Assembly (NCBI GenBank): GCA_016177845.1
Contig: JACOUO010000014.1
Coordinates: forward strand, 187,005-251,004
Direction of reading: 5' to 3'
From: Deltaproteobacteria bacterium
GTDB taxonomy: Bacteria; Desulfobacterota; GWC2-55-46
DNA: 64,000 nt
Shown: piece by piece, positions 5,068 through 54,620 of the stretch
Layout of the letters: every line of letters starts with the position of its first letter
Numbering within the stretch: the first letter of the stretch is position 1
Program-made: the position numbers and the translations under genes
Notes under the pieces: model-generated
Databases searched by the model: none
Told to the model about the DNA's origin: nothing
The model's input: the letters and a program-made list of their open reading frames with translations, nothing else

Positions 5068-6468
5068 TCAGGCGATTAGCCCTTCGATGGGGATACCGAA
5101 GGCTTCGGGGCCTTTTGCTCCGATAATAGACCTTGACGGGTCGTTTACAAGATCAAGCTCAAAGGGGCTTTCCAAAGATTTTTTATCTTTTCCGCATACT
5201 ATCAGGAGCATTGGCTGGAGCGGATAAGCCCTGTTGAGCATCTTAACAATGCCGACTTCGCCCGTATTGAGCTCAACAAGGGCGCCTATAGGGTAAATTC
5301 CAAGGCATTTTATAAGCCTCTCCACAATTTCCGGGTCAAGGTGCGTCTCCCGCATAAGGTAGATTTTTTTAAGGGCATCTTCAGGTAGTATCCCGTTTTG
5401 ATAGACCCTGTTGCTTGTCATCGCGTCATAGACATCGGCAACTGCCGCAATACGGGCAAACTTATGTATTTCAGTGCCCGGTATGTGGTACTGGTATCCG
5501 CTTCCGTCGTATCTTTCATGGTGCTGCAGCGGCACAAACCTTGAACTGTCGTTTATATCCTTGGTTTTAAAGAGGATTTCAGCCCCGAAGTCAGTATGGC
5601 GTTTTATCTCCTCAAATTCATTCTCTGTGAGCCGGCCGGGCTTTTTGAGTATCATCTCAGGCACGAGCATCTTTCCTATGTCATGGAGTATCGCTCCGAC
5701 CCCGAGATTATGCAGTTCATCCTTGGACAGTCCCATGCTCCTGCCAAGGGTTACGGAAAGTATGCAGACATTGACCGAATGGGCAAAGGTATAATCATCA
5801 AAGCTTTTCAGACGGGAAAGGGTTGTAAGCGCGTCCTGGTTCCTGAAGATGCTGTCAACCATTTTGCCGACGCTATTATGGACTTTATCCGTTTTGATGT
5901 CCCCGCCGAGCTTTACAGCGGTTAAGAACTCTCTGGCAAGGCCTTCAGCCTCGTTTCTAATCTTTTTGGCCTCTCTCAGCTCTTCCTTATATTCTTCCCT
6001 CTGTTCTGCTATCGACTTTTCAGCAGATAATTCAGGCTTGCCCTCTTCAGGTTCAGCATATACTATCGGTGAGGGGTTTTCTGTCTCTGAAATTTCCTCG
6101 ACAGCCTCTGTGTCGATTACAGCAGCTTCGACTTCATTTTCGGATACTTCCTCAACAGGGCTCAACTCAACTTCAGCCTCTTCCACTGCTTCGCCTGCCT
6201 CTTCGAGAACCTCTGCGGCAGGTTCAGGTTTTGGGGGAGTGAACTCAACGACTTCGGCCTTTTTAACTGCTCTCAGAATAACAGGCGGCTTGGCTGCCTC
6301 CATATCAATATGGGCATACCTGTACCCGTCCCTTTTGAAGCGTTCAATGTCCTCAGAGCTCTTGATTTTGATATTATTCATGAAAAATATGCCTGCGGAG
6401 CCTTCTTTTTCAAGGCCGCTGACATACATCCCGATCTCAAGCTCGTCTATGGCAATCTTTTTAATCAT
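5068..6468 (-). CDS. HD-GYP domain cyclic-di-GMP phosphodiesterase with a DUF3391-like N-terminus and a Glu-rich linker
   Basis: HDIGKMLVP ... HHERYDGSGY(Q) HD-GYP signature. The start is taken as the ATG at 6468 (MIKKIAIDEL). The ORF-track start at 6501 is TTG without an RBS. Confidence 0.8.
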   Translation of the reverse strand: MIKKIAIDELEIGMYVSGLEKEGSAGIFFMNNIKIKSSEDIERFKRDGYRYAHIDMEAAKPPVILRAVKKAEVVEFTPPKPEPAAEVLEEAGEAVEEAEVELSPVEEVSENEVEAAVIDTEAVEEISETENPSPIVYAEPEEGKPELSAEKSIAEQREEYKEELREAKKIRNEAEGLAREFLTAVKLGGDIKTDKVHNSVGKMVDSIFRNQDALTTLSRLKSFDDYTFAHSVNVCILSVTLGRSMGLSKDELHNLGVGAILHDIGKMLVPEMILKKPGRLTENEFEEIKRHTDFGAEILFKTKDINDSSRFVPLQHHERYDGSGYQYHIPGTEIHKFARIAAVADVYDAMTSNRVYQNGILPEDALKKIYLMRETHLDPEIVERLIKCLGIYPIGALVELNTGEVGIVKMLNRAYPLQPMLLIVCGKDKKSLESPFELDLVNDPSRSIIGAKGPEAFGIPIEGLIA

Positions 6469-6666
6469 ATGTACTCTTTCAGGACTATTTCGAAAATACA
6501 ACGCATATAGACTAATCGGCAGAAACTGACTAAAACTTTAGTTTAAAAAAGTAAAGGAAAAACAAAGGGTTCCGTGCAGGTGAATTGACATAATCGAGAA
6601 CCGGACTATACTCAAAAATATGCCGGAAGAGGATAGTGTTTTGCCCTAAGGAAAGGAGAAGGAACT

Positions 6667-6957
6667 ATGGCTATAAACATGCCTAAGATATTAAGCTGTA
6701 CTGTTACGGAATGCGCCTATAACATAAAAAACGAATGCCACACAATGGCCATCACCGTAGGCGACGGAGGCCATGCCGCATGTGATACTTATTACAGGGC
6801 ACCGAACAAAGGCGGGGCGGACATCATTGGAGGAGTGGGCGCATGCAAGGCGCATGAATGCAAGTACAACAAGCTTTATGAATGTTTTGCTCCGGGTATC
6901 ACGGTTGCGCACCACAGCGAGCATGCAGACTGCAAGACCTTTACTCCCAGAGGTTAA
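6667..6957 (+). CDS. DUF1540 domain Cys-rich protein
   Basis: GGAAAGGAGAAGG RBS. Repeated CxY/HxC pattern (SCTVTECAYNIKNECHT ... GACKAHECKYNKLYEC) typical of DUF1540. Confidence 0.7.
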   Translation: MAINMPKILSCTVTECAYNIKNECHTMAITVGDGGHAACDTYYRAPNKGGADIIGGVGACKAHECKYNKLYECFAPGITVAHHSEHADCKTFTPRG

Positions 6958-7079
6958 TCTTACATGCCGTCTGACAAGGAACATTGTAAAAAAATCAGCT
7001 ATCCTCCTTCCGGCATCTTTAATCACTCAGAACCAGAAACTCTTTAAGTCTGTTTTTCGTGCACTAAGAAAGGGGTTGC

Positions 7080-7463
7080 ATGGATTATCAGAACTTCATC
7101 AGGGAAGTCAACAGGCTTGGTTTTATCAGGGCTAATCCTGTGAAAGCTGATGCCGGGGTGAAGGCTGTACTTGGTATTCTCGCAAGCATGATGGAAGAGC
7201 CTGATGCCAGACAGCTTACCGAAAGGCTTCCTGAGCCGTTGACTTTTGAAAAGCTATACGGACATCAGGCCAATATCAAAAGGATATCAGCGGACCAATA
7301 CATAGAAGAGATAAGGGAGCAGCTTAATCTGAAGTCTGATGAGGCAAGGGAATTCATAAGAACTGTTTTACATATTACAAGAGAGATGCTTGGGAACGGC
7401 CTTCTGATAGAGCTTGGGAAAAAGCTTCCGTCTGACTGGAAAGAGATTATATTGAGCTCCTGA
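7080..7463 (+). CDS. DUF2267 domain protein
   Basis: The two-repeat architecture and conserved motifs of DUF2267 (FIREV..., EKLYGHQ...). It follows the DUF1540 gene in the same orientation. Confidence 0.65.
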   Translation: MDYQNFIREVNRLGFIRANPVKADAGVKAVLGILASMMEEPDARQLTERLPEPLTFEKLYGHQANIKRISADQYIEEIREQLNLKSDEAREFIRTVLHITREMLGNGLLIELGKKLPSDWKEIILSS

Positions 7464-7505
7464 CCTTCCTTTTATCAGTAAACTTTTTTTTGACAAGACC
7501 TTGGG

Positions 7506-8312
7506 ATGGGTGATATAGGAAGGACTATGGAGAGGATTATCACCCTTACAACTGATTTCGGCCTTAAAGACCCTTACCAGGGTGCAATGAAAGGGGCCGT
7601 CCTTTCAATAAATCCTAAAGCAAAACTAATCGACATAACACACCTTGTCTCGCCCGGAAATATCCTTGAGGGCGCGCTTATACTCCTTGACGCGTATGAA
7701 TTTTTCCCTGAAGGCGTCATTCACGCGGGGGTAGTTGACCCGGGTGTCGGAGGCGCGCGCAAACCCATTCTTATTGAGACAAAAAGGCATTTTTTCATCG
7801 GGCCTGACAATGGGCTTTTCAGCCTTATAGCTCAAAGGGAAGAGGTCAGGCGAGTAGTCCATCTCACCAATCAAAAATATTTCCGTAAAGATATCAGCGC
7901 CACCTTTCACGGAAGGGACATCTTCGGTCCTGTTGCCGCCCATCTAAGCCTTGGGGTTGACCCTGCCTTATTCGGGGAGGAGATAAAATCCCTGCAATCA
8001 ATAGAGATGCCTCAGCCCGTAAAAGAAGGCGGGCAGATAATTGGAGAGGTCATCTATGTGGACTCCTTCGGCAATCTTCTTACCAATATCAAAAGGTCTG
8101 ATATCTTGTCGTGTGGGGAAAATATTGAGGTCTCCATAAAAGGAGTCAGTTTAAAAGGCATACGGAATACTTACAGTTCGGCTGAAAAGGGGGCGGTAAT
8201 TGCATTGATAAGCAGTTCAAACCATCTTGAAATAGCAGTAAATTCAGGCATGGCCTCAAAGATAATTGGGGCTGAAGTCGGCGAAAGGGTTTTGGTCAAG
8301 GTAAGCAGATGA
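7506..8312 (+). CDS. SAM hydroxide adenosyltransferase family protein (DUF62; chlorinase/fluorinase-like)
   Basis: The N-terminal LTTDFGLKDPYQGAMKG and DxxHLVSPGN motifs are typical of the SAM hydroxide adenosyltransferase family. The stop overlaps the dtd start (ATGA). Confidence 0.8.
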   Translation: MGDIGRTMERIITLTTDFGLKDPYQGAMKGAVLSINPKAKLIDITHLVSPGNILEGALILLDAYEFFPEGVIHAGVVDPGVGGARKPILIETKRHFFIGPDNGLFSLIAQREEVRRVVHLTNQKYFRKDISATFHGRDIFGPVAAHLSLGVDPALFGEEIKSLQSIEMPQPVKEGGQIIGEVIYVDSFGNLLTNIKRSDILSCGENIEVSIKGVSLKGIRNTYSSAEKGAVIALISSSNHLEIAVNSGMASKIIGAEVGERVLVKVSR

Positions 8313-8759: not shown

Positions 8760-9735
8760 GTCTGATTTATATAACCCCTCACCCCAGCCCTCTCCATAGG
8801 TCTGAAATCAACTAACACCCCTAATTAAACCGTCATTCCCGAATGTCTTAATCGGGAATCCGGTATTTAGAGTAATTGTAGGGCGCGGGCTATGCCTGCC
8901 GTGGTGCTAATTTTCTTTTGCGAACAGCGGGTTCGCTCCTCGGGCGTTGGACTCTGTTCGCTGTCGAGTTCGTTCGCTAATAGATACTGACGCTCGCTCT
9001 CGCCCTCCTTCTAATCAAGCCGTCATTCCCGAATGTCTCTATCGGGAATCCAGTATTAAAGATTTTGGACTGTTCCCTTTCATTGGGAAAATACCAAAGT
9101 TCGTCATTGTGAGTCAGTGCCTTTTTTACTTTTGCGAACAGCGGGTTCGCTCCTCGGGGCATTGGACTCTGTTCGCTGTCAGGCTCATTCGCAATAGATT
9201 TCGAACTCTCTCGCTCTCTCCCTAATCAAGCCGTCATTCCCGAATGTCTCTATCGAACTGCGGGTTCGCTCCTCGGGGCATTGGACTCTGCTCGCTGTCA
9301 GGCTCATTCGCAAAAAATACCGATACCCGCTCTCTCCCTCTCCTTTATGCTCTCTGCGCAATGCCCCTTGGTGTGGTGTTTTAAAACAAAATTCAAAACA
9401 GAACAGAAAAAGAATTTTTTTTATTCTTTGTTTTTTAAAAACCCCGAGGGCGCAAATGGCGAAGCATCCCCTAAGGGAGGCAGGGCGAGCGAGCCGAGGC
9501 TGCGGGAGCGCAAGCGACTTAAGAGGCGAAGCAAGCGGATTGGGGAGGAGCGGGATGGCGAGCCATTCGCCCGAAAAAGCCCGGCAGGGCGTTAAAGTTA
9601 AAACAGCACTGAGCTGGCTGTAATACTCTTCTCAATCTGAGCTTTTCTGCTGCGCAATGCCCTTGGTGTATTTTAAAAAAACAAAAATACCAAAAAAATT
9701 CACTCCTGATGGTGAATATGGAGAGAGGGAGAATC
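8760..9735. repeat. mosaic intergenic repeat block (~1 kb)
   Basis: Three copies each of module A (cctaatcaagccgtcattcccgaatgtctctatcgggaatccagtatt; 8818-8870, 9013-9062, 9222-9256) and module B (ttttgcgaacagcgggttcgctcctcggggcattggactctgttcgctgtc; 8914-, 9122-, 9255-). One full ~185-bp module C (9435-9625). Module F (ctctgcgcaatgccccttggtgtggtgttttaaaaca; 9350- and 9645-). ORF-track entries here are artefacts of the repeats. Confidence 0.85.
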
Positions 9736-13699: not shown

Positions 13700-14300
13700 T
13701 TAATTTTACACTTCTTTTATTCTGCTTTTGTACCCTGTCTTGTTTTAAAAACATCACATGACATAGTCCCCGTCAAAAGACCGCTCGCCCTGCCTTCCTT
13801 AGGGGATGTTCGCATTTGCGCCCTCGGGGTTTTGTAAAAACAAAATACAAAAAAGATTGCCTCGTCGCTTCGCTCCTCGCAATAAATATATTTTTCTTCC
13901 CATCTTGTAGGAGAATTTAAAAAACAGATTGCTTCGCTCCGCTCGCAATGACAATATTGGTAATCGTCATTCCCGCGAAAGCGGGAATCCAGTATTTCAG
14001 TTTCTGGATTCCCGATAGAGACATTCGGGAATGACGGCTTGATTAGGAGGAGGGCGAGAGCGAGCGTTAGTATCTATTAGCGAACGAACTCGATAGCCGG
14101 GAGCCAATGAACCGAGGAGCAAGCCCAGCGAAAAGTAAATAAGCAAACCGTTCTTTTAAGATTATATTTGGTGGGCACAGCCCACCCTACAAATAAAACT
14201 ATTTTCGCTTTTTGGCGCTTGTGGGAAGGGGAGGGGGATTTTAAAGGCTCAAAATCGCAAATTCCACCCTGTTTAAGCCCCCATTTCCTCAAACCATACC
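13700..14300. repeat. mosaic intergenic repeat block
   Basis: Module C in reverse orientation (13790-13860). Modules A in inverted tandem (gtcattcccgcgaaagcgggaatccagtatttcagtttctggattcccgatagagacattcgggaatgac; 13962-14035). Module B reverse complement (14055-14150). Module D ggtgggcacagcccaccctacaa (14170-14195). Confidence 0.85.
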
Positions 14301-23559: not shown

Positions 23560-24230
23560 TTCCTCCGCATTCATCCGCTAACGGATGCGCTAAGGTCATT
23601 TTAATAAAGAATTCGGAATATTTCCATATAAAAAATAAGGGGATAGGAAAAAGGTTGTGAAATCCACCCTTCTTCCTAATCAAGCCGTCATTCCCGAATG
23701 TCTCTATCGGGAATCCAGTATTAAAGATAGGAGCGAAGCGCCAAGGCAATCTTTCTTGTGTTTTGCCTTACAAAACCCCGAGGGCGCAAATGGCGAAGCA
23801 TCCCCTAAGGGAGGAAGGGTGAGCGAGCCGAGGCTGCGGGAGCGTAAGCGACCTAAGAAATGAACCGAGCGGATTGGGGAGGCGCGGGGTGGCGAGCCAT
23901 TCGCCCAAAAGAGCCCGGCAGGGCGTTAAAGTTAAAACAGCACTGAGCTGACTACATATTTTCTTTCCCTATTCTTGTCTTTAAAGCCTGCCGCTGTGCT
24001 TTTCTACTTTTGCGCGCCGGGCCTGCTCCTCGTGGCATTGGCTCCGTTCGCTGTCGCGTTTGTTCGCTAATAGATACTGAAGCCCGCTCTCTCCCGCTCC
24101 CTTATGCTCATTTCGCAACGCCCCTTGGCGTGGTGTTTTAAACAAGACAAAATAGAAATACAAATACTTCCCCCTCCCTTGATGGGTGGGGATAAAGGGG
24201 AGGGTGATTTAAGTACCAAAAAACAAAAAA
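23560..24230. repeat. mosaic intergenic repeat block
   Basis: Module A (23678-23730), full module C (23765-23955), module B (24000-24090), module F (24105-24160) and module E cccctcccttgatgggtggggataaaggggagggtga (24170-24215). Confidence 0.85.
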
Positions 24231-28529: not shown

Positions 28530-29135
28530 GGACGCCCTGAGCCGTCATTGCGAACGGAGCGAAGCAATCCTTTTATTTATTCCCCTCACTTCTACCCTCT
28601 CAAACTGTCCAATAGATTGCTTCGGGCTTAACGCCCTCGCAATGACGACATCTCACCCGTTTCCCGAATGTCACTATCGGGAATTTACTTTTAAAATACT
28701 GGATTCCCGCTTTCGCGGGAATGACAATTCTAAACCTGTCATTGCGAGCGGAGCGAAGCAATCCTTTTATTTATTCCCCTCACTTCTACCCTCTCAAACT
28801 GTCAAATAGATTGCTTCGGGCTTAACGCCCTTGCAATGACGACATCTCACCCGTCATTCCCGAATGTCACTATCGGGAATTGACAATTCTAAACCAGTCA
28901 TTGCGAGCGAAGCGAGGCAATCCTGTTATTTATTCCCCTTACTTCTACCCTCTCAAACTGTCAAATAGATTGCTTCGGGCTTAACGCCCTTGCAATGACG
29001 ACATCTCACCCGTCATTCCCGAATGTCACTATCGGGAATCTACTTTTAAAATACTGGATTCCCGCTTTCGCGGGAATGACAATTCTAAACCAGTCATTGC
29101 GAGCGAAGCGAGGCAATCTGTTTTATTTACTCCCG
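28530..29135. repeat. tandem array (~3.3 copies) of a ~160-200-bp composite structured repeat
   Basis: The unit gtcattgcgagcgaagcgaagcaatcc..(70 nt)..gattgcttcgggcttaacgccctcgcaatgacgac contains nested long-range inverted repeats (gtcattgcgag/ctcgcaatgac and cgaagcaatc/gattgcttcg). Each unit is followed by module-A-type hairpins (cattcccgaatgtcactatcgggaat and ggattcccgctttcgcgggaatgac). Unit starts are near 28537, 28737 and 28897. Confidence 0.85.
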
Positions 29136-35340: not shown

Positions 35341-37077
35341 TTACAGGTTTTTAAGGCGTTCCACTTCCCTTTCGGTCAGCATCCTGTACTGGCCGGGCTC
35401 AAGGCTTCCAAGCTTTATTCCAGCGAACTCAACTCTCTTAAGCTTTATGACAGGGTGTCCTATTGCCTGACACATCCTTTTGACAAGCCTGTTCCTGCCC
35501 TCTATTACGGTAATCTCTATCCAGGAGTTCTCCTGAGTTTCCTTTACAAACCTTGCCCTTGCAGGCAGAGTCCTTCCGTCCTCAAGGTAAACCCCGCGTT
35601 CCAGCTTCTCAATGTCTTCCCTCTTAGGCACATCCTTGACCTTTACAAGGTACTTTTTAGGGACTTTGAAGTTCGGGTGGATGAGCTTGTTTGAAAGCTC
35701 GCCGTCATTGGTAAGAAGTATTACCCCTTCGGCATCATAGTCCAGCCTGCCAATGGGATAAACCCTTTCCTTTGTATTGACAAGGTCGGTCACTACCTGC
35801 CTGTGAAGCGGGTCAGTAACCGCGCTGATGCAATCCTTTGGCTTATTTAAAAGTATATAGACCTTTGGCCCTTTGAACGAAATGAGCTTTCCGTCAACCG
35901 CTATCCTGTCCTTGAACGGGTCTGCTTTTGCCCCGACCTCAGTAACAGTATGGTTGTTTACGGTTACTCTGCCCTGAGTTACAAGCTCCTCTGCCTTTCT
36001 TCTGGATGTGATACCGGCAGCGGAGATGATCTTTTGAAGCCTTTCCTCATGCCCTTCCTCCAGATGGCGTGCAGGCTGTGGGGTTTTAGACCTTCTCGGC
36101 CTTGCTGGCCTCTGGGGCCTTTCCGACCACTTGGGCTTATCTGAACCCTCAGGTCTTTCAGGCCTTTCAGTCCCTTCAAAACGCTTCGGTCTTTCAGGCC
36201 TTTCTGACCTCTCAAACCTCTTAGGCCTTTCGCTTCTTTCCGATCTCTCAGGCCTCTCAAACCTTTGCGGCCTTTCGGGCCTTTCGGTTCTATTTGGCTT
36301 GTCAGTTCCTTCAAAACGCTTCGGTCTTACAGGCCTTTCCGACCTCTCAAACCTCTTAGGCCTTTCGCTTCTTTCAGATCTCTCAGGTCTCTCAAACCTT
36401 TGCGGCCTTTCCCGTCTTTCGGTTCTCTCGGATGACGACCAATCAAACTTTTTCTTTATCTGGTCTGTCCTCTCCCTCGTCTCCGATTCCTTCCTCGGGT
36501 ATCTCCTCGGAGCGTCCTGTGAGGCTCTCTCGTCCTTCTTCCAAGGCTTCTTCCTCAGTTCCTTCTGTGAGGTCTTCCCCTCCGGCCTCCAGACCAGAGT
36601 CCTCTCCCTCGTCTCCGATTCCTTCTTCGGGTATCTCTTCGCAGTGTCCTGTGAGGTCCTCTTCTCCCTGTTCCAGGATTGGTTCTTCTCCGAGTCCCTC
36701 CGGGTAGTCCTCTCCTCCGGCTTCCAGGACTGAGTCCCCTCCCTCGTCTCCGAGTTCCTCCTCGGATATCTCTTCGGAGCTTCCTCTGAGGGGTTCTCCT
36801 CCCTCTTCTTCCAAGGCTGGCTCCTGATGTTCTTCTTCATATCCATCCGGGAAGTCTTCTCCTCCGGCCTCCAGGACTGAGTCTTCTCCCTCGTCTCTGA
36901 TTGCCTCCTGGGACGGCCTTCCCTGTTCGGACGACCTTCCGTTCTCGGACGGTCCTCCCTCCTGTTCCTGTTCTCCTGCGCCCTCTTCTGATTCGGGCGG
37001 GTTTTGGGCGGCATTTTCTTCCTCCATTTTCTGTAAATCTTTAAGGCTCGGCAGGCACGAGAGGTCTTTAAGATCAA
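35341..37077 (-). CDS. rluB: RluB/RsuA-family pseudouridine synthase with an S4 domain and a long Arg/Glu-rich low-complexity N-terminal extension (start unresolved)
   Basis: The core (from about 36070 downward) has the S4 domain (ERLQKIISAAGITSRRKAEELV) and the pseudouridine synthase catalytic region (GRLDYDAEGVILLTNDG). There is no ATG, GTG or TTG in frame between the scpB stop (36443) and the S4 domain. The frame is open upstream to 37077 through the GA-rich repeats, in the +1 frame relative to scpB. Confidence 0.6.
   Translation of the reverse strand: MILKTSRACRALKIYRKWRKKMPPKTRPNQKRAQENRNRREDRPRTEGRPNREGRPRRQSETREKTQSWRPEEKTSRMDMKKNIRSQPWKKREENPSEEAPKRYPRRNSETREGTQSWKPEERTTRRDSEKNQSWNREKRTSQDTAKRYPKKESETRERTLVWRPEGKTSQKELRKKPWKKDERASQDAPRRYPRKESETRERTDQIKKKFDWSSSERTERRERPQRFERPERSERSERPKRFERSERPVRPKRFEGTDKPNRTERPERPQRFERPERSERSERPKRFERSERPERPKRFEGTERPERPEGSDKPKWSERPQRPARPRRSKTPQPARHLEEGHEERLQKIISAAGITSRRKAEELVTQGRVTVNNHTVTEVGAKADPFKDRIAVDGKLISFKGPKVYILLNKPKDCISAVTDPLHRQVVTDLVNTKERVYPIGRLDYDAEGVILLTNDGELSNKLIHPNFKVPKKYLVKVKDVPKREDIEKLERGVYLEDGRTLPARARFVKETQENSWIEITVIEGRNRLVKRMCQAIGHPVIKLKRVEFAGIKLGSLEPGQYRMLTEREVERLKNL
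36130..36900. repeat. GA-rich coding tandem repeats (2 x ~123 bp at 36130-36430; ~3 x 130-147 bp at 36460-36900)
   Basis: Direct reading of the sequence. The repeats encode ~44-49-aa acidic repeats in the ScpB tail (EGEDSVLEAGGED...EEIPEEGIGD) and R/E/P repeats (ERPERSERSERPKRFERSERP) in the rluB frame. Confidence 0.8.
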
Positions 37078-39992: not shown

Positions 39993-40179
39993 AATAATAC
40001 ACCTATAACTTTTAAGTTTATCAGATAGTTCACCGCAAGGTCAACGCAAATCTTGGAGGGGTAAATTGGCGTTTAATAATTAATATATACAGGGATTTTC
40101 ATTGTAGAGGGAAAGTGAAAAGGTGATTTAAAAGTGGTTTTGAGGAGAAAATGTGAGATTTAATGAGGTAAAAACTAAG

Positions 40180-40740
40180 CTCCCCTCCCTTGATGGGAGG
40201 GGATAAAGGGGAGGGTGAAAGTGAAAAAACCTCACTCCAGCCCTCTCTCTCGTCAGTCGTCATTCCCGAATGTCTCTATCGGGAATCTACTTAAAAATAC
40301 TGGATTCCCGCTTTCGCGGGAATGACAGATTATGGAATAATCTATCTGTGAGAACAGAGCGAAGCAATCTATTTTCTTCACCTCCTGCGCCATCGGGGGT
40401 TTTAAGAACAAAAACTAAATTCTTTTATTCTGATTTTAGATCTTGTCTTGTTTTTAAAACACCACACCAAGGGGCATTGCGTAGAGAGCATAAAGGAGAG
40501 GAAGAGAGCGGGAATTAGTATCTGTTAGCGAACGGAGTCCAATGCCCCGAGGAGCGAACCCGCTGTTCGCAAAAGTAAAATAGCAGAAGCGTTAATAGGC
40601 AGAGGAGTTGATGAGTTTGCTTCTCGCAACTGGCCAAGCAGTCGTCATTGCGTACTTGAAGTAATCTGTCTTTGCTGGGAGGAAATAAAGGGGAGGGTGA
40701 TGCAGTCAGTGCAGGGATTTCAGCCCTGAGCAACCCGCTT
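40180..40740. repeat. mosaic intergenic repeat block
   Basis: Module E at 40185-40230 and 40670-40710. Module A pair at 40255-40330 (gtcattcccgaatgtctctatcgggaatctacttaaaaatactggattcccgctttcgcgggaatgac). Module F and module B in reverse complement at 40455-40585. Confidence 0.85.
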
Positions 40741-43383
40741 TTATTTAGCCTTCTTCTCAGCCTTCCTGTTTTTTTTCCATTTTACGTAAGTCTTTACAAA
40801 CTCCTCTTCGTCTTCCTTTGTATGTATCTCCCCATCAAGCCGCTTTTTAAAAAGCGTTCTGAATATCTCTCCCATGATAGGGCCTTCTTCAATCCCAAGC
40901 TTTTTTAAGTCCGCTCCCTTTAGCATTGTCTCAGTGTATCTCAGCTTCGCTATGAAAATTGAAAGCGCCTTTTTCACATTCTCATTCTGAGTACGGGCAA
41001 GGAGGTAGATATGGATTTCAAGGGGCAGAGGCTTGAGCAGTTCATAGATATCGCTGTTCTTTTTTACCATCCCTGAATTCAGGCGGTTCAATGCCTTGAT
41101 GCCGTCAATCCTTGAATTAAGGACGAAGAGCCTCTTTTTACCTGATATCAGAAGCCTTTTTACAAGCGAGCTTAGCTCGGATTCCGTCAGCGGGTCAGTT
41201 AGCGCGAGGAACAAGACAAGCCATTCCTCGACAGGCTCTCCCGTAAACAGGAGCTTGTACCATGTAAGCGCCTCTTTTGCCCTTTCAAAGAAAAGCTCAC
41301 GGTCAATATCCCATGTGATGCTTTTGTGAATGAGCTTAAGGAGGCCAAGCTCATTGAGTTTCCTGATGGATTTGACGGCAGTCTCTTCTTCAAGGATATT
41401 TTTAAGCTCTTCAAACAGCCTTGCGCCTGAAAGCTGTCTGAAAGAATCAAGCTTTACAGAGTTTTTGATAAGGTTTAAGGTATGCTTTCCTATCCTGAAA
41501 TCAAACTTCTCGGAGAACCTTACTGCCCTGAGCATCCTTGTGGGGTCTTCGACAAAGCTTAAATTATGAAGCACCCGTATGGTCTTTTCCTTTAAATCCT
41601 TCTGCGCCCCGAAAAAGTCTATAAGCTCTCCGAAGCCTTCGGGGTTAAGGGCTATCGCAAGGGTATTTATGATGAAATCGCGCCTGTAGAGGTCGAGCTT
41701 CAGTGACGACTGCTCAATGGTAGGCAGCGCGCCCGGCTTTTCATAGTATTCGAGGCGTGCCGTGGCGATATCTATCTTAAACCCGTCCGGGAATATGAGT
41801 ACAGCTGTCCTGAACCTGTGGTGCGGGCGTACCCGAAGTTCCCTTCTCTTGGCAAACTCATGGGCAAATACTATCCCGTCCCCGCCTTCTATCACTATAT
41901 CAATATCGAGGTTATCCCTTCTTAATATTAAATCCCTTACAAATCCGCCTACGGCGTATGCCTTACAGCCAAGCTCTTCGGCAATCTCCCCGGCCTCTTT
42001 GAGTATCTCGATTACCCATTCAGGCAGCCTCTCCTTCATGTGCTTTGAGAGGTATCTTACTTTTTTCGGCGCTCCTTCTGTGCTTTCCCTCAACTCATCC
42101 TGCAATAGCTTGAGCAAATCCGTTCTTGTGATTACGCCGACAACCTTTTTATCTCTTATGACAGGCAGCAGCCTCTGGCCGTGCCCGATTACCTTTTCCC
42201 GTATCTCATCAATGGATGTGTCCGCATTTACCCATTCGACCTCTGTTGTCATGTAATCGCTTACAGGGGCTGAGCCAAGCCCGTGATAGACTGCCTTATC
42301 GCAGACCTGCCTTGTGATTACCCCGTGTATCTCGCTGTCCTCTACAACGGGAGCGGCGTTTATATTGTACCTTCTCATAAGGTCAACCGCCTGCCTGAGC
42401 GTTGTAGCGGCAGGCACAGTTATGGGAGGATAAGACATTATGTCGGAGGCGTTTCTCCTTGGGGCGATTGTCTTTCGTAAGATAGAGAGTAGCTTTTCCT
42501 TTGCCTCGATAAGGGTTACTCCCTTAAGGGTGGCTGATGCGGCGTTAGGGTGCCCTCCGCCTCCGATTGCGCGCGCCACCTTGCCAACATCTACTTCAGG
42601 GGTCTTTGAGCGCGCTATCAGGTGCACCCTGTCCTCAGAGTCCACAAGCAGGAAAAGGCAGTTCATGCCCTCGATGTCCCGTATCTTATGCGCAAGGATG
42701 GAAATATCACCCACATATCTTTCAATATATCCTTCAGCTATTACAACTTCCACTCCTCCGATGATGTACTTTGTCTCTGAGTGGAGAAAATCATTGAGCA
42801 GTGAGACTTCCTCAGGGGTAAGCTCTTTTCTTAAAAGGTCCGATACAACGGTTAAGTTCGCGCCGTTTGAAAGGAGAAATGCCGCGGCCTCGTAGTCTTT
42901 TACTGTTGTTCCCGGATAGGTTAGAAAACCGGTATCTTCATATATGCCTGCCATCAGTATCGTTGCTTCATCCGGGGTAAGGCTTAACCCTCTGTCTCTG
43001 ATAACAAGCGTAAGCACGGAGGTACACGCCCCGTAAGGCGCAATGACCTCAACTGAGCCCTTCACCACATCGCCTGTAGAGGGATGGTGGTCGTAGATGT
43101 GGATATCGATATCTTTTTTGCAGACCGCTTCGGCAAAGGGGCCGATTCTGCCAGGATGTCTTGCGTCAACGAGAATGAGCCTCTTGATTTTTTTGATGTC
43201 TATATCCTTGATGCGGTCAAATTTAAAAGGGAGTTTCACGCTTCCGCTGTCAATTGCCTCCTTAAGTGTCTTTTCAAGAGAGCCTGAAAAAACGAGACGG
43301 GCCTGCGGATAAAGCTTTTTTGCGGCAATCATGGACGCGAATGTATCAAAATCCGCGTTTGTATGAGATGTAATGACTTCCAT
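40741..43383 (-). CDS. multidomain protein: DHH-DHHA1 phosphoesterase + tandem CBS + CCA/poly(A) polymerase-type nucleotidyltransferase + HD domain
   Basis: N-terminal DHH motifs (HTNADFDTFASM ... DHH), two CBS domains, the polymerase-beta-type head GGFVRDLILRRDNLDIDIV with the tRNA-NT core, and a C-terminal HD-like region. 880 aa. Confidence 0.8.
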   Translation of the reverse strand: MEVITSHTNADFDTFASMIAAKKLYPQARLVFSGSLEKTLKEAIDSGSVKLPFKFDRIKDIDIKKIKRLILVDARHPGRIGPFAEAVCKKDIDIHIYDHHPSTGDVVKGSVEVIAPYGACTSVLTLVIRDRGLSLTPDEATILMAGIYEDTGFLTYPGTTVKDYEAAAFLLSNGANLTVVSDLLRKELTPEEVSLLNDFLHSETKYIIGGVEVVIAEGYIERYVGDISILAHKIRDIEGMNCLFLLVDSEDRVHLIARSKTPEVDVGKVARAIGGGGHPNAASATLKGVTLIEAKEKLLSILRKTIAPRRNASDIMSYPPITVPAATTLRQAVDLMRRYNINAAPVVEDSEIHGVITRQVCDKAVYHGLGSAPVSDYMTTEVEWVNADTSIDEIREKVIGHGQRLLPVIRDKKVVGVITRTDLLKLLQDELRESTEGAPKKVRYLSKHMKERLPEWVIEILKEAGEIAEELGCKAYAVGGFVRDLILRRDNLDIDIVIEGGDGIVFAHEFAKRRELRVRPHHRFRTAVLIFPDGFKIDIATARLEYYEKPGALPTIEQSSLKLDLYRRDFIINTLAIALNPEGFGELIDFFGAQKDLKEKTIRVLHNLSFVEDPTRMLRAVRFSEKFDFRIGKHTLNLIKNSVKLDSFRQLSGARLFEELKNILEEETAVKSIRKLNELGLLKLIHKSITWDIDRELFFERAKEALTWYKLLFTGEPVEEWLVLFLALTDPLTESELSSLVKRLLISGKKRLFVLNSRIDGIKALNRLNSGMVKKNSDIYELLKPLPLEIHIYLLARTQNENVKKALSIFIAKLRYTETMLKGADLKKLGIEEGPIMGEIFRTLFKKRLDGEIHTKEDEEEFVKTYVKWKKNRKAEKKAK

Positions 43384-43496
43384 AAATGGATATTAGCATA
43401 CTTATGAAATTGTTACAAAGTATTAGGATATATAGATTTTTTTTGTTACAATTGAATTTATATTTTTTTTGAATATCAAAGTGTTGGTTCTTAAAA

Positions 43497-44366
43497 ATGA
43501 GTATGAAATCTGAATCCATTACAATTAATTCTTTTAATGAATATATTGACATTGTTAATCGGTCAATGGGGAATATTTGTTTATTCCGGGGGCAAGTAGA
43601 AGATTTAGAATTACTTCCAAAAATAGCAAGACCTGAATGTATCGGTCTTTTTCAAAACCAAAGATTTATAGAGTCTTGGAAAAAAACAATTCCGGCTTTG
43701 CCGTCTAAAGATCTAAGTAACTTATTAAATGACGAAGAGCTTCCGATAACTAAACCAACTAAAGAAATGAAAAAATATCAGAAAGATTTTCTGTTATTTG
43801 AAATGAAAATGTTTTCAGAATTCTGCAGAGCATCAATTCCATATTTAAATGGTAAAATACCAAATGGTAAGTGGGAATGGCTCACATTAGCACAACACCA
43901 TGGTTTGCCAACTCGATTATTAGATTGGACGAAAAACCCCTTAATAGCATTATGGTTTGCAGTGCAGGACTCTTCAAAAATGTCTGAAGCTGAACAAAAA
44001 AGGTCTTCAACTTATGGTGTTGTTTGGCAATTCAATCCCAAAAATTCAGATTTTTTAAACACGTTGAAAGATAAAACTCCATTTTCATTAAAAAGAACAA
44101 AAATTTTTGAGCCAAATCATATATCACAGAGAATTGTCGCTCAATCCGCTTGTTTTACAGCACATAAATACTTAAATGATCGTGGTTTTATTTCTCTTAT
44201 TAGAAACAAATTCTATAAAGATAGATTATTTAAAATTATTATACCTTATAATAGATTTCCTATTTTAAAAAAGAGCCTTTCACATTTCGGCATAAATTCT
44301 GCTACACTTTTCGCCGATTTAGACAATCTTTGTAGAAATATTATTGAAGTGTACACTCCTGAATAG
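43497..44366 (+). CDS. FRG-domain protein, in an AT-rich island
   Basis: Contains the FRG-domain pattern GNICLFRGQ...LLP plus downstream WEWLTLAQHHGLPTRLLDWT (the Phe-Arg-Gly motif region). Local GC is about 32-35% versus ~48% in the flanks. Confidence 0.7.
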   Translation: MSMKSESITINSFNEYIDIVNRSMGNICLFRGQVEDLELLPKIARPECIGLFQNQRFIESWKKTIPALPSKDLSNLLNDEELPITKPTKEMKKYQKDFLLFEMKMFSEFCRASIPYLNGKIPNGKWEWLTLAQHHGLPTRLLDWTKNPLIALWFAVQDSSKMSEAEQKRSSTYGVVWQFNPKNSDFLNTLKDKTPFSLKRTKIFEPNHISQRIVAQSACFTAHKYLNDRGFISLIRNKFYKDRLFKIIIPYNRFPILKKSLSHFGINSATLFADLDNLCRNIIEVYTPE

Positions 44367-44374
44367 CCTCTAAT

Positions 44375-44620
44375 CTAATCTTTTTGCGAACTGGGTTCGC
44401 TCCTCGGGGTATTGGCTCCCGGCTACCGAGTTCGTTCTCTAATCAAGCCGTCATTCCCGACTGTCTCTATCGGGAATCGAGTATTGTAGTATTTTAGTAT
44501 TGTAGAGTGGGCTGTGCCACCAAATGTTCTTATAAAAGAGCGTTGTTGCTAAAAACAAGACAGAATACAAAATATTTCCCTCCTTTATCGGGATGATAAA
44601 GGGAAGGGTGAAAAGTGAAA
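44375..44620. repeat. mosaic intergenic repeat block
   Basis: Module B (44385-44440), module A (44440-44480), a module-D-like palindrome (44500-44520) and module E (44575-44615). Confidence 0.8.
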
Positions 44621-44640
44621 ACTGCCTCTCTCCCGCTGAA

Positions 44641-44676
44641 ATAAAAAAAGGGCAGACAGCTTTCGCTGTCTGCCCT
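44641..44676 (-). terminator. rho-independent terminator at the 3' end of the cytochrome locus
   Basis: On the minus strand: GGGCAGACAGCgaaaGCTGTCTGCCC followed by tttttttat. Confidence 0.75.
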
Positions 44677-44690
44677 TTAAACGGTTCAAG

Positions 44691-45548
44691 TTATTTTGAT
44701 ATGGTCTTTACTTCCGCTTTTGTCTTATCCGCTGCCTTTTCATCCTTCGGCTCCTCTATCTTGGGAGCAGGCTGTGAATGGCATCTGAAGCAGTCATCGA
44801 GCGGGAAGGCCACTTTAACATGGCATGTTCCGCAGTACTGGCCTGAGATAATCTTTATCATGTTCATCTCAGGGTTCCCGCCCTTCTGCTGCTTGAATAT
44901 GGAGGTGTGACAGGTCTCACAGTTCATCTGCTCTGTGTGCGCTTTATGGGGGAAGAGCACATCAGGCGGATGTGGCGTGAACTTTGTAACAGGGATAACT
45001 ACATCCATATCAAGGGCGTCAAGCGTTCCTTTGCCATCAGGCGAGGCCGCAGGTTTTATCTTACCTTCCCTTACAGCCTTTACCCAGTCGACCTTGTTGC
45101 CGAAGTGGTCTTTTGGAAGGTCCTTTAAGGAATCGTCAATATTGCTGTTCCCGGCGTTCTGCGCTCCGTATGAGTGGCAGCGTTTGCAGTTGCTGACAGG
45201 GAATGATGTTGTGCCGTTATGGCATGATCCGCAGTATTTGCCTGATTCTATATCAGCCTGTGTAACCCCGGTGGCATTTGGCTTCATCGCGAAGCCAAGG
45301 TCAGTATGGCAGGCCTTGCAGGTGTATTTGGCCCTGTGTGCCCAATGAGGAAAGAGCACAGGCTCAATTGTTTTTGAACTTCTGGTGTTTTTATCCATCA
45401 GCACAGTACCATGTGAGCCGGGCGCCTTGACTTTTTTCAGGTCAGTTTCCCATGTATTACCCTGCGCGTTTACTCCCTGGTAAAAGAAAAGGCCTGTGAC
45501 AAAGGCCGTTGATAATATGGCCAGACGCTTGAAAATTTTACTACGCAC
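44691..45548 (-). CDS. hexaheme c-type cytochrome: two tandem triheme cytochrome c7-like domains, membrane-anchored
   Basis: Six CxxCH motifs (CKACH, CGSCH, CKRCH, CETCH, CGTCH, CFRCH). Two c7-type FPHxAH motifs (LFPHWAHRAKYTCKACH, LFPHKAHTEQMNCETCH). GTG start at 45548 with a GGAGG RBS. An in-frame ATG at 45626 would overlap the upstream gene. Confidence 0.8.
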   Translation of the reverse strand: MRSKIFKRLAILSTAFVTGLFFYQGVNAQGNTWETDLKKVKAPGSHGTVLMDKNTRSSKTIEPVLFPHWAHRAKYTCKACHTDLGFAMKPNATGVTQADIESGKYCGSCHNGTTSFPVSNCKRCHSYGAQNAGNSNIDDSLKDLPKDHFGNKVDWVKAVREGKIKPAASPDGKGTLDALDMDVVIPVTKFTPHPPDVLFPHKAHTEQMNCETCHTSIFKQQKGGNPEMNMIKIISGQYCGTCHVKVAFPLDDCFRCHSQPAPKIEEPKDEKAADKTKAEVKTISK

Positions 45549-45598
45549 TTTAGACCTCCGTTTTAAAACTGACTTCAATTGACTCAATTGCTTTATTA

Positions 45599-46072
45599 TT
45601 AATAGCCGACATGGCATGAGGCGCATAATCTGAGGTAATCCACCCTTAACATCTTGGGATATCTGGACTTGTTGTGCGGGTCATGGCATGTATAGCAGAC
45701 CATCTCTCCGTCATCGGTTAAAGGCAGTTTAGCCGGAATTTTAATCTTGGGCATCTTGCCGATAGGATGCCTGGTAACCGGATGATTGGTCATATTCCCC
45801 GGATGGCATTTGGCGCATGTCGTAACCGGGTCAAAGCTGAGCCTCGGGGGCTCGCTCCCATGGCAGACTGAACAGGTGCTGTCATCATAATAGTTATGAG
45901 GATTGGCGCTTACCTGTCCCTCTTCTTCGGAATAAGCTGTTCCCGGATTTGTGATTCCGAGAACGGGCAAAAAGATAAGAAGTGCAAGAATAAGAATCGG
46001 GTTTATCAGGGCGCCTCTCCAATGGAACCGTTTTTTAAAAATTCTTTTACCTGAGGATTTATTCGGGTCCAT
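45599..46072 (-). CDS. tetraheme c-type cytochrome, N-terminal membrane anchor
   Basis: Four CxxCH motifs (CSVCH, CAKCH, CYTCHDPHN, CASCH) and a TM helix at residues ~20-40. Confidence 0.8.
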   Translation of the reverse strand: MDPNKSSGKRIFKKRFHWRGALINPILILALLIFLPVLGITNPGTAYSEEEGQVSANPHNYYDDSTCSVCHGSEPPRLSFDPVTTCAKCHPGNMTNHPVTRHPIGKMPKIKIPAKLPLTDDGEMVCYTCHDPHNKSRYPKMLRVDYLRLCASCHVGY

Positions 46073-53739: not shown

Positions 53740-54620
53740 TCTGTTTAACTTCCTCCCTTAATGGGACGGGATAAATGAGAGAGGGAGAAAAATATTGCAG
53801 GGTGGGCTGTGACCACAGAATCTAATCTCAAAAGGTGTTTGTGCTGATTTACTTTTACGCCGGGCTTTAACTCTTCGGGGTATTGGCTCCGTTAGCTGTC
53901 GAGTCCGTTCGCTAATAAATACGAATGCCCGCTCTCTCCCTCTCCCCTGATCAAGCCGTCATTCCCGAATGTCTCTATCGGGAATCTACTTTTAAAATAC
54001 TGGATTCCCGCTTTCGCGGGAATGACAATTACTAAAACCTGTCATCGTGGGCAGGGCAAAGCAATCTGTTTGTCCCCCTCACCCCCAACCCTCTCCCACA
54101 AGGGGAGAGCTGGGAGCGACGCGAGAAGGCAATCGTTAATATTTTGTCTTTATAAAACCCCGAGGGCGTTAATGGTGCGTAAGGGAGGAAGGGTGAGCGA
54201 GCCGAGGCTGCGGGAGCGTAAGCGACCTAAGAAATGAACCGAGCGGATTGGGGAGGAGCGGGGTTGCGCATCCATTCGCCCGAAAGAGCCCGGCAGGGCG
54301 TTAAAGTTAAAACATCACAGAACTTCAAAAAAATGAGACTTGCAGTAAAGCGTTGTTGTTTATTAACTTTTGCGAACAGCGGGTTCGCTCCTCGCGGCAT
54401 TGGACTCCGTTAGCTGTCGAGTCCGTTCGCTAATAAATACCAATGCCCGCTCTCTCCCTCTCCTTTCCTTTATGCTCTCTGCGCAATGCCCCTTGGTGTG
54501 GTGTTTTAAAAACAAGACAGAACAAACAGAATCTGTCATTGCGAGCAAAGTGAAGCAATCTGTTTTTCATTTAGTATCCCCCTCCCTTGATTGCAAGGAG
54601 ATAAAGGATATGGGTGAGCT
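53740..54620. repeat. mosaic intergenic repeat block
   Basis: Module E-like (53745-53790), module D-like (53800-53820), module B (53858-53940 and 54365-54450), module A pair (53942-54030), module C (54160-54320) and module F (54470-54525). Confidence 0.85.

Follow-up and report, generated by a model that had tools for sequence, protein, structure and literature searches.

How does a single, strongly AT-rich gene come to stand between conserved housekeeping genes of a bacterial chromosome, and what might its product do there? The locus that raises this question lies in a 64,000-nucleotide stretch of DNA from a Deltaproteobacteria bacterium (GTDB lineage Bacteria; Desulfobacterota; GWC2-55-46; GenBank assembly GCA_016177845.1, contig JACOUO010000014.1, positions 187,005 to 251,004 of the forward strand), which we call the window and in whose coordinates all positions below are given. 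An initial annotation, made from the letters of the window, had singled out an island of low GC content, roughly 1 kb long, that carries one open reading frame (ORF) of 289 aa with the LFRGQ motif of the Phe-Arg-Gly (FRG) domain, and had interpreted it as a horizontally acquired single-gene cassette. Here we show that the island is foreign DNA inserted into a conserved gene junction, and we weigh what the FRG-domain protein that it encodes may do.

A foreign AT-rich segment has entered a conserved gene junction

The island itself was readily confirmed. When read in 400-nt windows, GC content falls to 0.275-0.36 between about 43200 and 44600, against 0.42-0.53 on either side, and of the 64 bins of 1 kb, the two that cover the region have the lowest values (0.368 and 0.398), followed by one at 0.426. 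This is the sole strongly AT-rich stretch of the 64 kb, and it falls within positions 43384-44690. It carries the expected ORF on the plus strand (43497..44366, 289 aa, with LFRGQ at residues 29-33). In a set of 47 non-overlapping ORFs, each of at least 150 aa, this ORF has the minimum value for all three measures of composition that we compared: GC content (0.309 vs 0.483 ± 0.020 for the other ORFs, z = -8.8), GC content at third codon positions (GC3; 0.228 vs 0.554 ± 0.036, z = -9.1) and codon adaptation index (CAI; 0.591 vs 0.751 ± 0.035, z = -4.5), the last of these being a comparison that the initial annotation had proposed as a check.

From the GC profile, we place the foreign segment at 43422..44379 (about 960 bp, assigned to no strand, with approximate borders). 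In it, the FRG ORF is preceded by 75 nt of very low GC content and followed by 13 nt. We set the left border at about 43422 because positions 43384-43421 hold a native promoter that is kept in relatives, and the right border at about 44379 because a unit of the intergenic repeat R2 begins at about 44380, as judged by comparing its six copies. The initial annotation had named the flanks correctly, as the 5' end of a CCA/CBS gene on one side and mosaic repeats on the other, but it had started the island at 43384, within what is native promoter. Both junctions were also recovered in an independent Logan assembly (SRR12113422), in which a contig of 4550 bp (L252) is 100% identical to window positions 40556-45105 and spans the two junctions together with parts of both native flanking genes. 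This identity across both junctions means that they are not an assembly chimera, an explanation that we could accordingly all but rule out.

We then compared the junction with that of relatives by using the CCA-type protein encoded on the left flank as query against 185,579 species genomes, which yielded 80 loci. In 16 of these the gene order cytC-cytB-cytA-CCA is the same as in the window, with CCA-type proteins that are 58-73% identical. None of the 80 loci gave an FRG match, and no remnants of an FRG gene were found in the relatives' longer spacers by tblastn at E < 1e-5. In the 16 syntenic relatives, the spacer between cytA and the CCA-type gene measures 83-740 bp and has a GC content of 0.46-0.60, near the average of the locus; the shortest spacers (83-125 bp) consist solely of the cytA terminator hairpin and the promoter element of the CCA-type gene. 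The window spacer keeps both terminator and promoter, and the AT-rich segment and about 260 bp of repeats lie between them. The syntenic relatives are distant, at roughly family level, and the gain is known from such relatives alone. With the gene missing from synteny and its codon usage non-native, the proposed horizontal acquisition of a single-gene cassette was borne out: in this lineage, a terminator and a promoter came to be separated by an insertion of about 960 bp of foreign, low-GC DNA that bears a single intact gene.

The insertion came without a mobility gene, a transfer RNA (tRNA) gene, a terminal repeat or a partner gene. We found neither terminal direct or inverted repeats at 43422 and 44379 nor attC-like repeats at the borders. 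With no tRNA gene in the 64-kb window, no mobility gene near the FRG gene and flanks made up of syntenic housekeeping genes, a tRNA- or integrase-linked island or an integrative element was rejected as the source. A partner or antitoxin gene, or a regulatory RNA, hidden in the spacer was rejected as well: within 43384-44690 there is no plausible partner ORF besides the FRG gene, the short ORFs being spurious, and the Rfam matches in the spacer are all sub-threshold, lie on the terminator hairpin and define no RNA family. No candidate ORF adjoins the FRG gene that could serve as antitoxin in a module of the RES-Xre, MbcTA or DarTG type. The nearest homologues, at 45% identity or less, come from short metagenome contigs, and the named ones belong to Ignavibacteriales, Cyclobacteriaceae and Gemmatimonadaceae; given this scatter and the low identity, no donor can be assigned.

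Neither a sigma-70 consensus promoter nor a Shine-Dalgarno sequence was detected in the 75 nt that precede the FRG gene, which, to judge from the sequence, may use expression signals of a foreign kind. The same 75 nt contain ATATAGATTTTTTTTG / ATTTATATTTTTTTTG in two copies, at 43430-43445 and 43456-43471, 26 nt apart.

The gene encodes a divergent member of the FRG family

The GenBank model of the gene (MBI1912212.1, here P0001) starts at the ATG at 43503 and yields a protein of 287 aa that matches with 100% identity, the 289-aa form (P0135) being a variant of it; the next-best homologue is only 45% identical. The assignment to the FRG family, on which the initial annotation had made its proposal depend, held up in profile searches. 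The Pfam FRG family (PF08867), for which the cut-off is 25 bits, matches over profile positions 5-91 of 94 with a score of 76.6 bits (E 3e-21), and 14 models of PADLOC-DB match, all of them from the candidate system PDC-S15, the best being PDLC04938 (255.9 bits, E 1.1e-76); no PADLOC family other than PDC-S15 matched the protein. A profile search of 1.84 billion representatives returned 30,641 FRG clusters (at 50% identity) at E <= 1e-3, and 2,366 at E <= 1e-30, the bulk of the family's clusters being stand-alone proteins of about 240 aa.

The statement of the initial annotation that FRG proteins have no characterised function needs qualifying, as the family is not wholly without annotation. 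Frg has been placed in the ADP-ribosyltransferase (ART) superfamily and predicted to be a nicotinamide adenine dinucleotide (NAD) hydrolase (NADase) or antiviral effector (PMC9503650), and the Aravind group lists the Frg and RES clades together as ART domains deployed by prokaryotic immune systems (PMC9503650). FRG likewise appears among the known ART-like families in a second study (PMC12522546).

The predicted fold places conserved residues in an ART-like core

The initial annotation had seen no catalytic signature beyond the LFRGQ region, a statement that is contradicted by a predicted ART-like fold and by the invariant polar residues that the protein contains. Three motifs carry most of the conservation. 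The first is L29-F30-R31-G32-Q33 itself (43581..43595, plus strand), identified from alignments and predicted by AlphaFold2 to form strand beta-1 (residues 29-33); across 268 sequences R31 is 100% and G32 99% conserved, and Q33 is invariant or nearly so. The second, Q-H-H-G-L-P-T-R-L-L-D-W-T (43893..43931, plus strand), leads into beta-2 and then a helix (modelled at residues 141-145 and 148-156, respectively), and its residues H134, T139, R140, D143 and W144 are invariant in FRG alignments. The third, R212-x3-Q216-x3-F-T-x-H223 (44130..44165, plus strand), accompanies the predicted fifth core strand (residues 218-222), and R212, Q216, F220 and H223 are each at least 99% conserved in the 268 sequences. 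The invariant or near-invariant set as a whole comprises R31, G32, Q33, P41, R45, a Glu, H134, T139, R140, L142, D143, W144, F154, R212, Q216, F220 and H223. In alignments with 29 and with 267 homologues, the window protein keeps this full set, including all the family-invariant polar residues (R31, H134, T139, R140, D143, R212, Q216 and H223).

What sets the protein apart is a lineage-specific insertion of about 46 aa inside the FRG domain (residues ~46-92; 43632..43772, plus strand), which is seen in the alignments, in the AlphaFold2 model and in the span of the Pfam match, where residues 30-161 are covered by just 87 profile positions. The insert follows the LLPKIAR motif, is absent from all 29 homologues of the first alignment, and about 45 of its positions are gaps in at least 90% of the 267 homologues of the second. 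It is partly helical and partly of low confidence or disordered, with a predicted local distance difference test score (pLDDT) below 50 at residues 65-86. The protein can be described as some 240 core residues plus this unique insert.

AlphaFold2 modelled the window protein with a pLDDT of 82 and a predicted template modelling score (pTM) of 0.80, and a 43%-identical homologue (P0065) with a pLDDT of 88 and a pTM of 0.86. Both models contain six core strands in the same order: beta-1 with the FRG motif, a helical insert, beta-2 (LLDWT) with its helix, three strands, a strand preceded by R-x3-Q, and a last strand that leads into a C-terminal helical bundle. This order of strands and helices fits the six-stranded ART core with an arginine on beta-1. 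Read against the catalytic triad of ARTs, R31 lies on strand 1, D143-W144-T145 on strand 2 and Q216 before strand 5, with Q in place of E. On the strength of the models, R31 is a candidate for the NAD-binding arginine of an R-S-E-type ART, and Q216 a candidate counterpart of the catalytic E/Q. The FRG protein matched no PDB entry by sequence, and Foldseek against the PDB gave nothing significant, the best hit being TreX (E 0.24); a tie by sequence to a solved structure or to any other ART family was rejected, with neither a Pfam ART nor a PDB match to support it. An ART-like fold is supported at a moderate level by the models and agrees with both published assignments (PMC9503650, PMC12522546).

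FRG homologues stand alone in scattered genomic contexts

From 54 homologue loci we collected the proteins encoded beside the FRG gene, taking no more than two per side and only those of 100 aa or longer, which gave 141 proteins. No conserved neighbour emerged, as no Pfam or PADLOC family occurred in more than 2 of the 141, and this lack of a recurring neighbour family indicates that the architecture of FRG is stand-alone. Nor is any small, antitoxin-like neighbour common to the homologue loci. The neighbours that do occur are scattered, and include type I and type II restriction-modification (R-M) genes, mad3 and mad8 of MADS, PD-Lambda-2, PDC-S20, HerA, Mrr, a KAP NTPase, ABC-3C and integrases.

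Some homologues adjoin, or are fused with, type I R-M genes, a DISARM-like helicase, MADS, PD-Lambda-2 or toxin-antitoxin genes. One of them (P0057) lies directly after hsdM-hsdS-hsdR-ygjP and is followed by an AAA_16 gene no more than 1.3 kb away and, about 6.5 kb downstream, by a TIR gene. In two loci, HsdM_N, N6_Mtase and a C-terminal FRG domain are joined in single ORFs (L202:6546-8594, 682 aa; L226:410-2515, 701 aa), each followed by a second, ordinary hsdM, which in L202 is followed by hsdS. FRG is in these cases built into type I R-M operons. Elsewhere the neighbours are a helicase-MZB-REase protein (L176) and a 1376-aa methylase of the Eco57I type (L190), and further homologues are found near PIN/RelE and DUF4160/DUF2442 modules. 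Other FRG fusions (L221:632-1774; P0195, P0232) bear an N-terminal RNase_T domain (DEDD exonuclease) or an N-terminal F5/8 type C (discoidin) domain.

FRG homologues are also carried by mobile elements: they occur on 216 plasmids, of which 130 are conjugative or mobilisable, in 10 phage records and in no fewer than 112 IMG/VR contigs. The P2-like Salmonella phage SEN8 has an FRG gene on the opposite strand, between gpS and gpV, whose GC content is 0.38 vs 0.58 around it; the FRG gene of Acinetobacter phage vB_AbaSI_1 is two genes away from the one for the integrase; and on a Burkholderia plasmid an FRG gene is found among insertion sequence elements and HEPN genes.

DNA-repair genes are seen near several stand-alone FRG genes. 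The FRG gene of L088 (P0065) lies beside an AP endonuclease, an OGG/HhH-GPD glycosylase and Ada; in L086/L087 (P0119) an OGG gene is about 4 kb from it; and in L257 (P0087) it is next to an Lhr helicase and an ATP-dependent DNA ligase.

A predicted NAD-consuming effector and its alternatives

Judging from its family and its modelled fold, the FRG protein of the window is most likely a stand-alone, NAD-consuming conflict effector, as predicted for its relatives. That it is a candidate defence effector agrees with its listing under PDC-S15, with the fusions to and adjacency of type I R-M genes, and with the accessory positions that FRG genes occupy in prophages. In the mechanism that we propose, the protein would bind NAD+ and would either hydrolyse it, as an NADase, or transfer the ADP-ribose moiety to a target. 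Kept inactive as long as the cell is uninfected, it would be set off by phage infection, and phage growth would then be stopped through NAD+ depletion or target modification. Where relatives are fused to R-M proteins, the effector may guard the restriction system. More speculatively, autoinhibition might be exerted by the insert and by the conserved C-terminal helices.

Several points weigh against this reading. An experimental test of any FRG protein was not found in the searchable literature and neither was a published validation of PDC-S15, which is a computational candidate. In sequence comparisons, 30 FRG members matched none of the other Pfam ART-clan families even at E up to 10, the published ART assignment resting on more sensitive profile and structure methods; and it is from strand order that we infer R31, T145 and Q216 to occupy the R-S-E positions. 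Genomic context is similarly mixed. The initial annotation had looked to FRG homologues inside defence islands as a check, and among nine close homologues on long contigs one does belong to a classical defence island and another two have toxin-antitoxin genes nearby, but six are in metabolic or DNA-repair surroundings. The window gene itself is flanked wholly by housekeeping genes, outside any defence island, and, since promoter consensus and Shine-Dalgarno sequence are missing, its expression in the host is unproven. Taken together, we give the reading as a whole, in which an acquired stand-alone FRG gene encodes an NAD+-using, one-gene effector of the abortive-infection type and a PDC-S15 candidate, an even chance of being right.

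This reading could be carried further, to a self-contained immune module made of one protein. The ART-like FRG core would here be sensor of infection and enzyme in one, consuming NAD+ or ADP-ribosylating a nucleic acid or a protein, the insert would be autoinhibitory or recognise the trigger, and the gene, at about 960 bp and with no 3' untranslated region, would spread as naked DNA into gaps between terminators and promoters without any mobility machinery. We put this forward tentatively, as something that may be true and on balance probably is not.

The bare architecture of the locus can also be explained in another way, by an orphan toxin or selfish passenger, that is, an ART-like toxin gene that reached a permissive intergenic site and is silent, decaying or tolerated there, with no anti-phage benefit. 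Such a gene would need no partner, sensor or regulator alongside, and none is seen; it could do without a recognisable promoter or Shine-Dalgarno sequence; its extreme, unameliorated composition suggests recent arrival; the spacer gathers repeats in all relatives; and the unique, low-confidence insert of 46 aa could be disruptive. Against decay stands an ORF that is intact over 289 codons, although AT-rich DNA readily yields stop codons, and that retains all invariant family residues, with the insert in frame and placed between core elements where ARTs tolerate insertions. Moreover, a family of more than 30,000 clusters at 50% identity, mostly stand-alone and of about 240 aa, argues for a selectable single-gene function. 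We consider a mere passenger to be rather unlikely.

A cellular role outside defence, in nucleic-acid or NAD metabolism, has its own merits. The protein would in that case process or repair RNA or DNA ends in the manner of KptA/Tpt1, or regulate DNA or RNA by ADP-ribosylation. The repair-gene neighbours of several close homologues (L088, L086/L087, L257) point in this direction, but they are few and may not be independent; the RNase_T-FRG fusion and the location of most homologues outside defence islands can be added to them. A distribution so patchy that the gene is absent from all 16 syntenic relatives, its foreign composition, and the carriage of the family on plasmids and prophages and in R-M methylase fusions argue the other way, and make such a role, in our view, distinctly improbable. 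Finally, although the source is a metagenome-assembled genome and GC content changes abruptly at both borders, the chimeric joining of DNA from a low-GC organism during assembly or binning is extremely unlikely given the identical Logan contig and the native CCA-type promoter and cytochrome terminator, which flank the insert as a true insertion predicts.

Native surroundings of the insertion

To the left of the insertion lies the CCA-type housekeeping gene (40741..43383, minus strand, 880 aa), which encodes a DHH-DHHA1-CBS-PolyA_pol protein of the CCA-adding/polyA polymerase type and has orthologues at the 58-73% identity given above. Its native promoter is retained beside the insertion (43384..43421, minus strand) and reads TTGTAA, 17 nt, TGCTAATAT, 6 nt, ATG. 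A promoter-like element of the form TTGTAA, 17 nt, TG(C/T)TAATAT, 6-7 nt, ATG is found directly 5' of the CCA-type start codon in ten relatives (L001, L003, L009, L011, L012, L013, L015, L019, L072 and L080), in whose loci it sits just upstream of position 8001. Because the promoter ends 6-7 nt before the ATG, its sequence implies that the CCA-type gene is transcribed as a leaderless messenger RNA across the clade.

To the right is cytA (44691..45626, minus strand, 311 aa), a multihaem cytochrome gene that is the final member of a cytochrome cluster conserved in synteny in the 16 relatives. Its intrinsic terminator, a 14-bp stem followed by a T-run (44647..44678, minus strand), forms the native right edge of the spacer, and a hairpin with a T-run occupies the same position in all relatives.

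Between terminator and foreign segment lie about 260 bp of mosaic intergenic repeats (44380..44640, assigned to no strand), which copy comparison resolved into R2, R1 and R3 units, the R2 unit beginning just 13 nt past the FRG stop codon. R1 (GTCATTCCCGAATGTCTCTATCGGGAATC) has 11 copies in the window, R2 (TTTTGCGAACnGCGGGTTCGCTCCTCGGGGCATTGG) six and R3 (ATAAAGGGGAGGGTGA) five, and each contains a short hairpin. R1 and R2 were not found in the 80 loci of related genomes. Mosaic repeats occur in the window at 1939-2169, 8832-9348, 14007-14035, 23687-24207, 28853-29040, 40100-40740, 44380-44640 and 53958-54403. A cassette delimited by these repeats, in the manner of a miniature inverted-repeat transposable element or an integron, was rejected, as the window has R1-R3 units at no fewer than nine further intergenic sites; since the repeat block stands on one side only and has copies elsewhere, the repeats are a genome-wide feature and do not mark cassette ends.

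The same spacer is variable in relatives. Between cytA and the CCA-type gene (about 6065-8000 in locus coordinates; L001-L019, L072 and L080) it holds differing, lineage-specific repeats, among them GGTTATCGG-type tandem motifs in L003 and a palindromic element, GCGTAC...GTACGCCGCA, common to L001 and L009. Throughout the clade, the spacer seems to be a place that tolerates insertions.

At the other compositional extreme, the bin at 36001-37000 has the highest GC content of the window (0.555), with a GC skew of -0.26 and an AT skew of -0.50. It falls in the 5' part of a 578-aa S4/pseudouridine-synthase gene (35341..37077, minus strand), which suggests that the N-terminal extension of this protein is compositionally biased.

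Comparison with known systems

The FRG family is very large and widely scattered, its 30,641 clusters reaching into plasmids, prophages and fusions with R-M methylases. Within it, this locus is an unusually clean natural example, with one gene exactly between a terminator and a promoter at a junction that is empty in 16 relatives. As no partner gene confounds it, the gene offers a convenient single-gene construct for tests of toxicity, of NADase or ADP-ribosylation activity and of phage protection. Should it prove to be a self-contained immune module, this would be the first biochemical and phenotypic characterisation of the FRG family.

The closest comparison is with PDC-S15, with which the window gene shares a full-length match to the hidden Markov model, the FRG domain, single-gene architecture and all conserved motifs. 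It differs in the unique insert of about 46 aa, in its 45% identity to the nearest relative and in lying outside a defence island. In structure, the best matches of two independent FRG models are R-S-E ART toxins (Rhs toxins of the TreX/Tre1 type, heat-labile enterotoxin and pertussis S1) together with NAD+-degrading RES toxins (Xre-RES, MbcT and ParT), the top Foldseek hit, TreX, not being significant at E 0.24; with these toxins the FRG protein shares an arginine on the first core strand, and its strand and helix order fits the ART core.

In arrangements of the PrrC/EcoprrI type, a latent effector resides within a type I R-M locus and guards the R-M system. FRG relatives that are fused to an HsdM-like methylase ahead of a second HsdM, or that stand right after hsdMSR, resemble this design, whereas the window gene has no R-M gene nearby, so that any guarding would have to act in trans or the protein would answer to another cue. 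The placement of the gene recalls the moron genes of P2-like prophages, each a lone AT-rich gene that is inserted, on the opposite strand, between conserved genes and brings hardly any non-coding DNA; the FRG protein of SEN8 is a distant relative of ours (35% identity over 99 residues). Unlike a prophage moron, however, the window gene occupies a chromosomal site with housekeeping flanks and no phage genes nearby. In light of these comparisons, the window FRG gene is a divergent member of the catalogued FRG/PDC-S15 family, itself a candidate, and no new kind of system; what is specific to this locus is that the protein has the 46-aa insert, that the gene sits exactly between a terminator and a promoter of the leaderless type, and that its arrival left no mobility signature.

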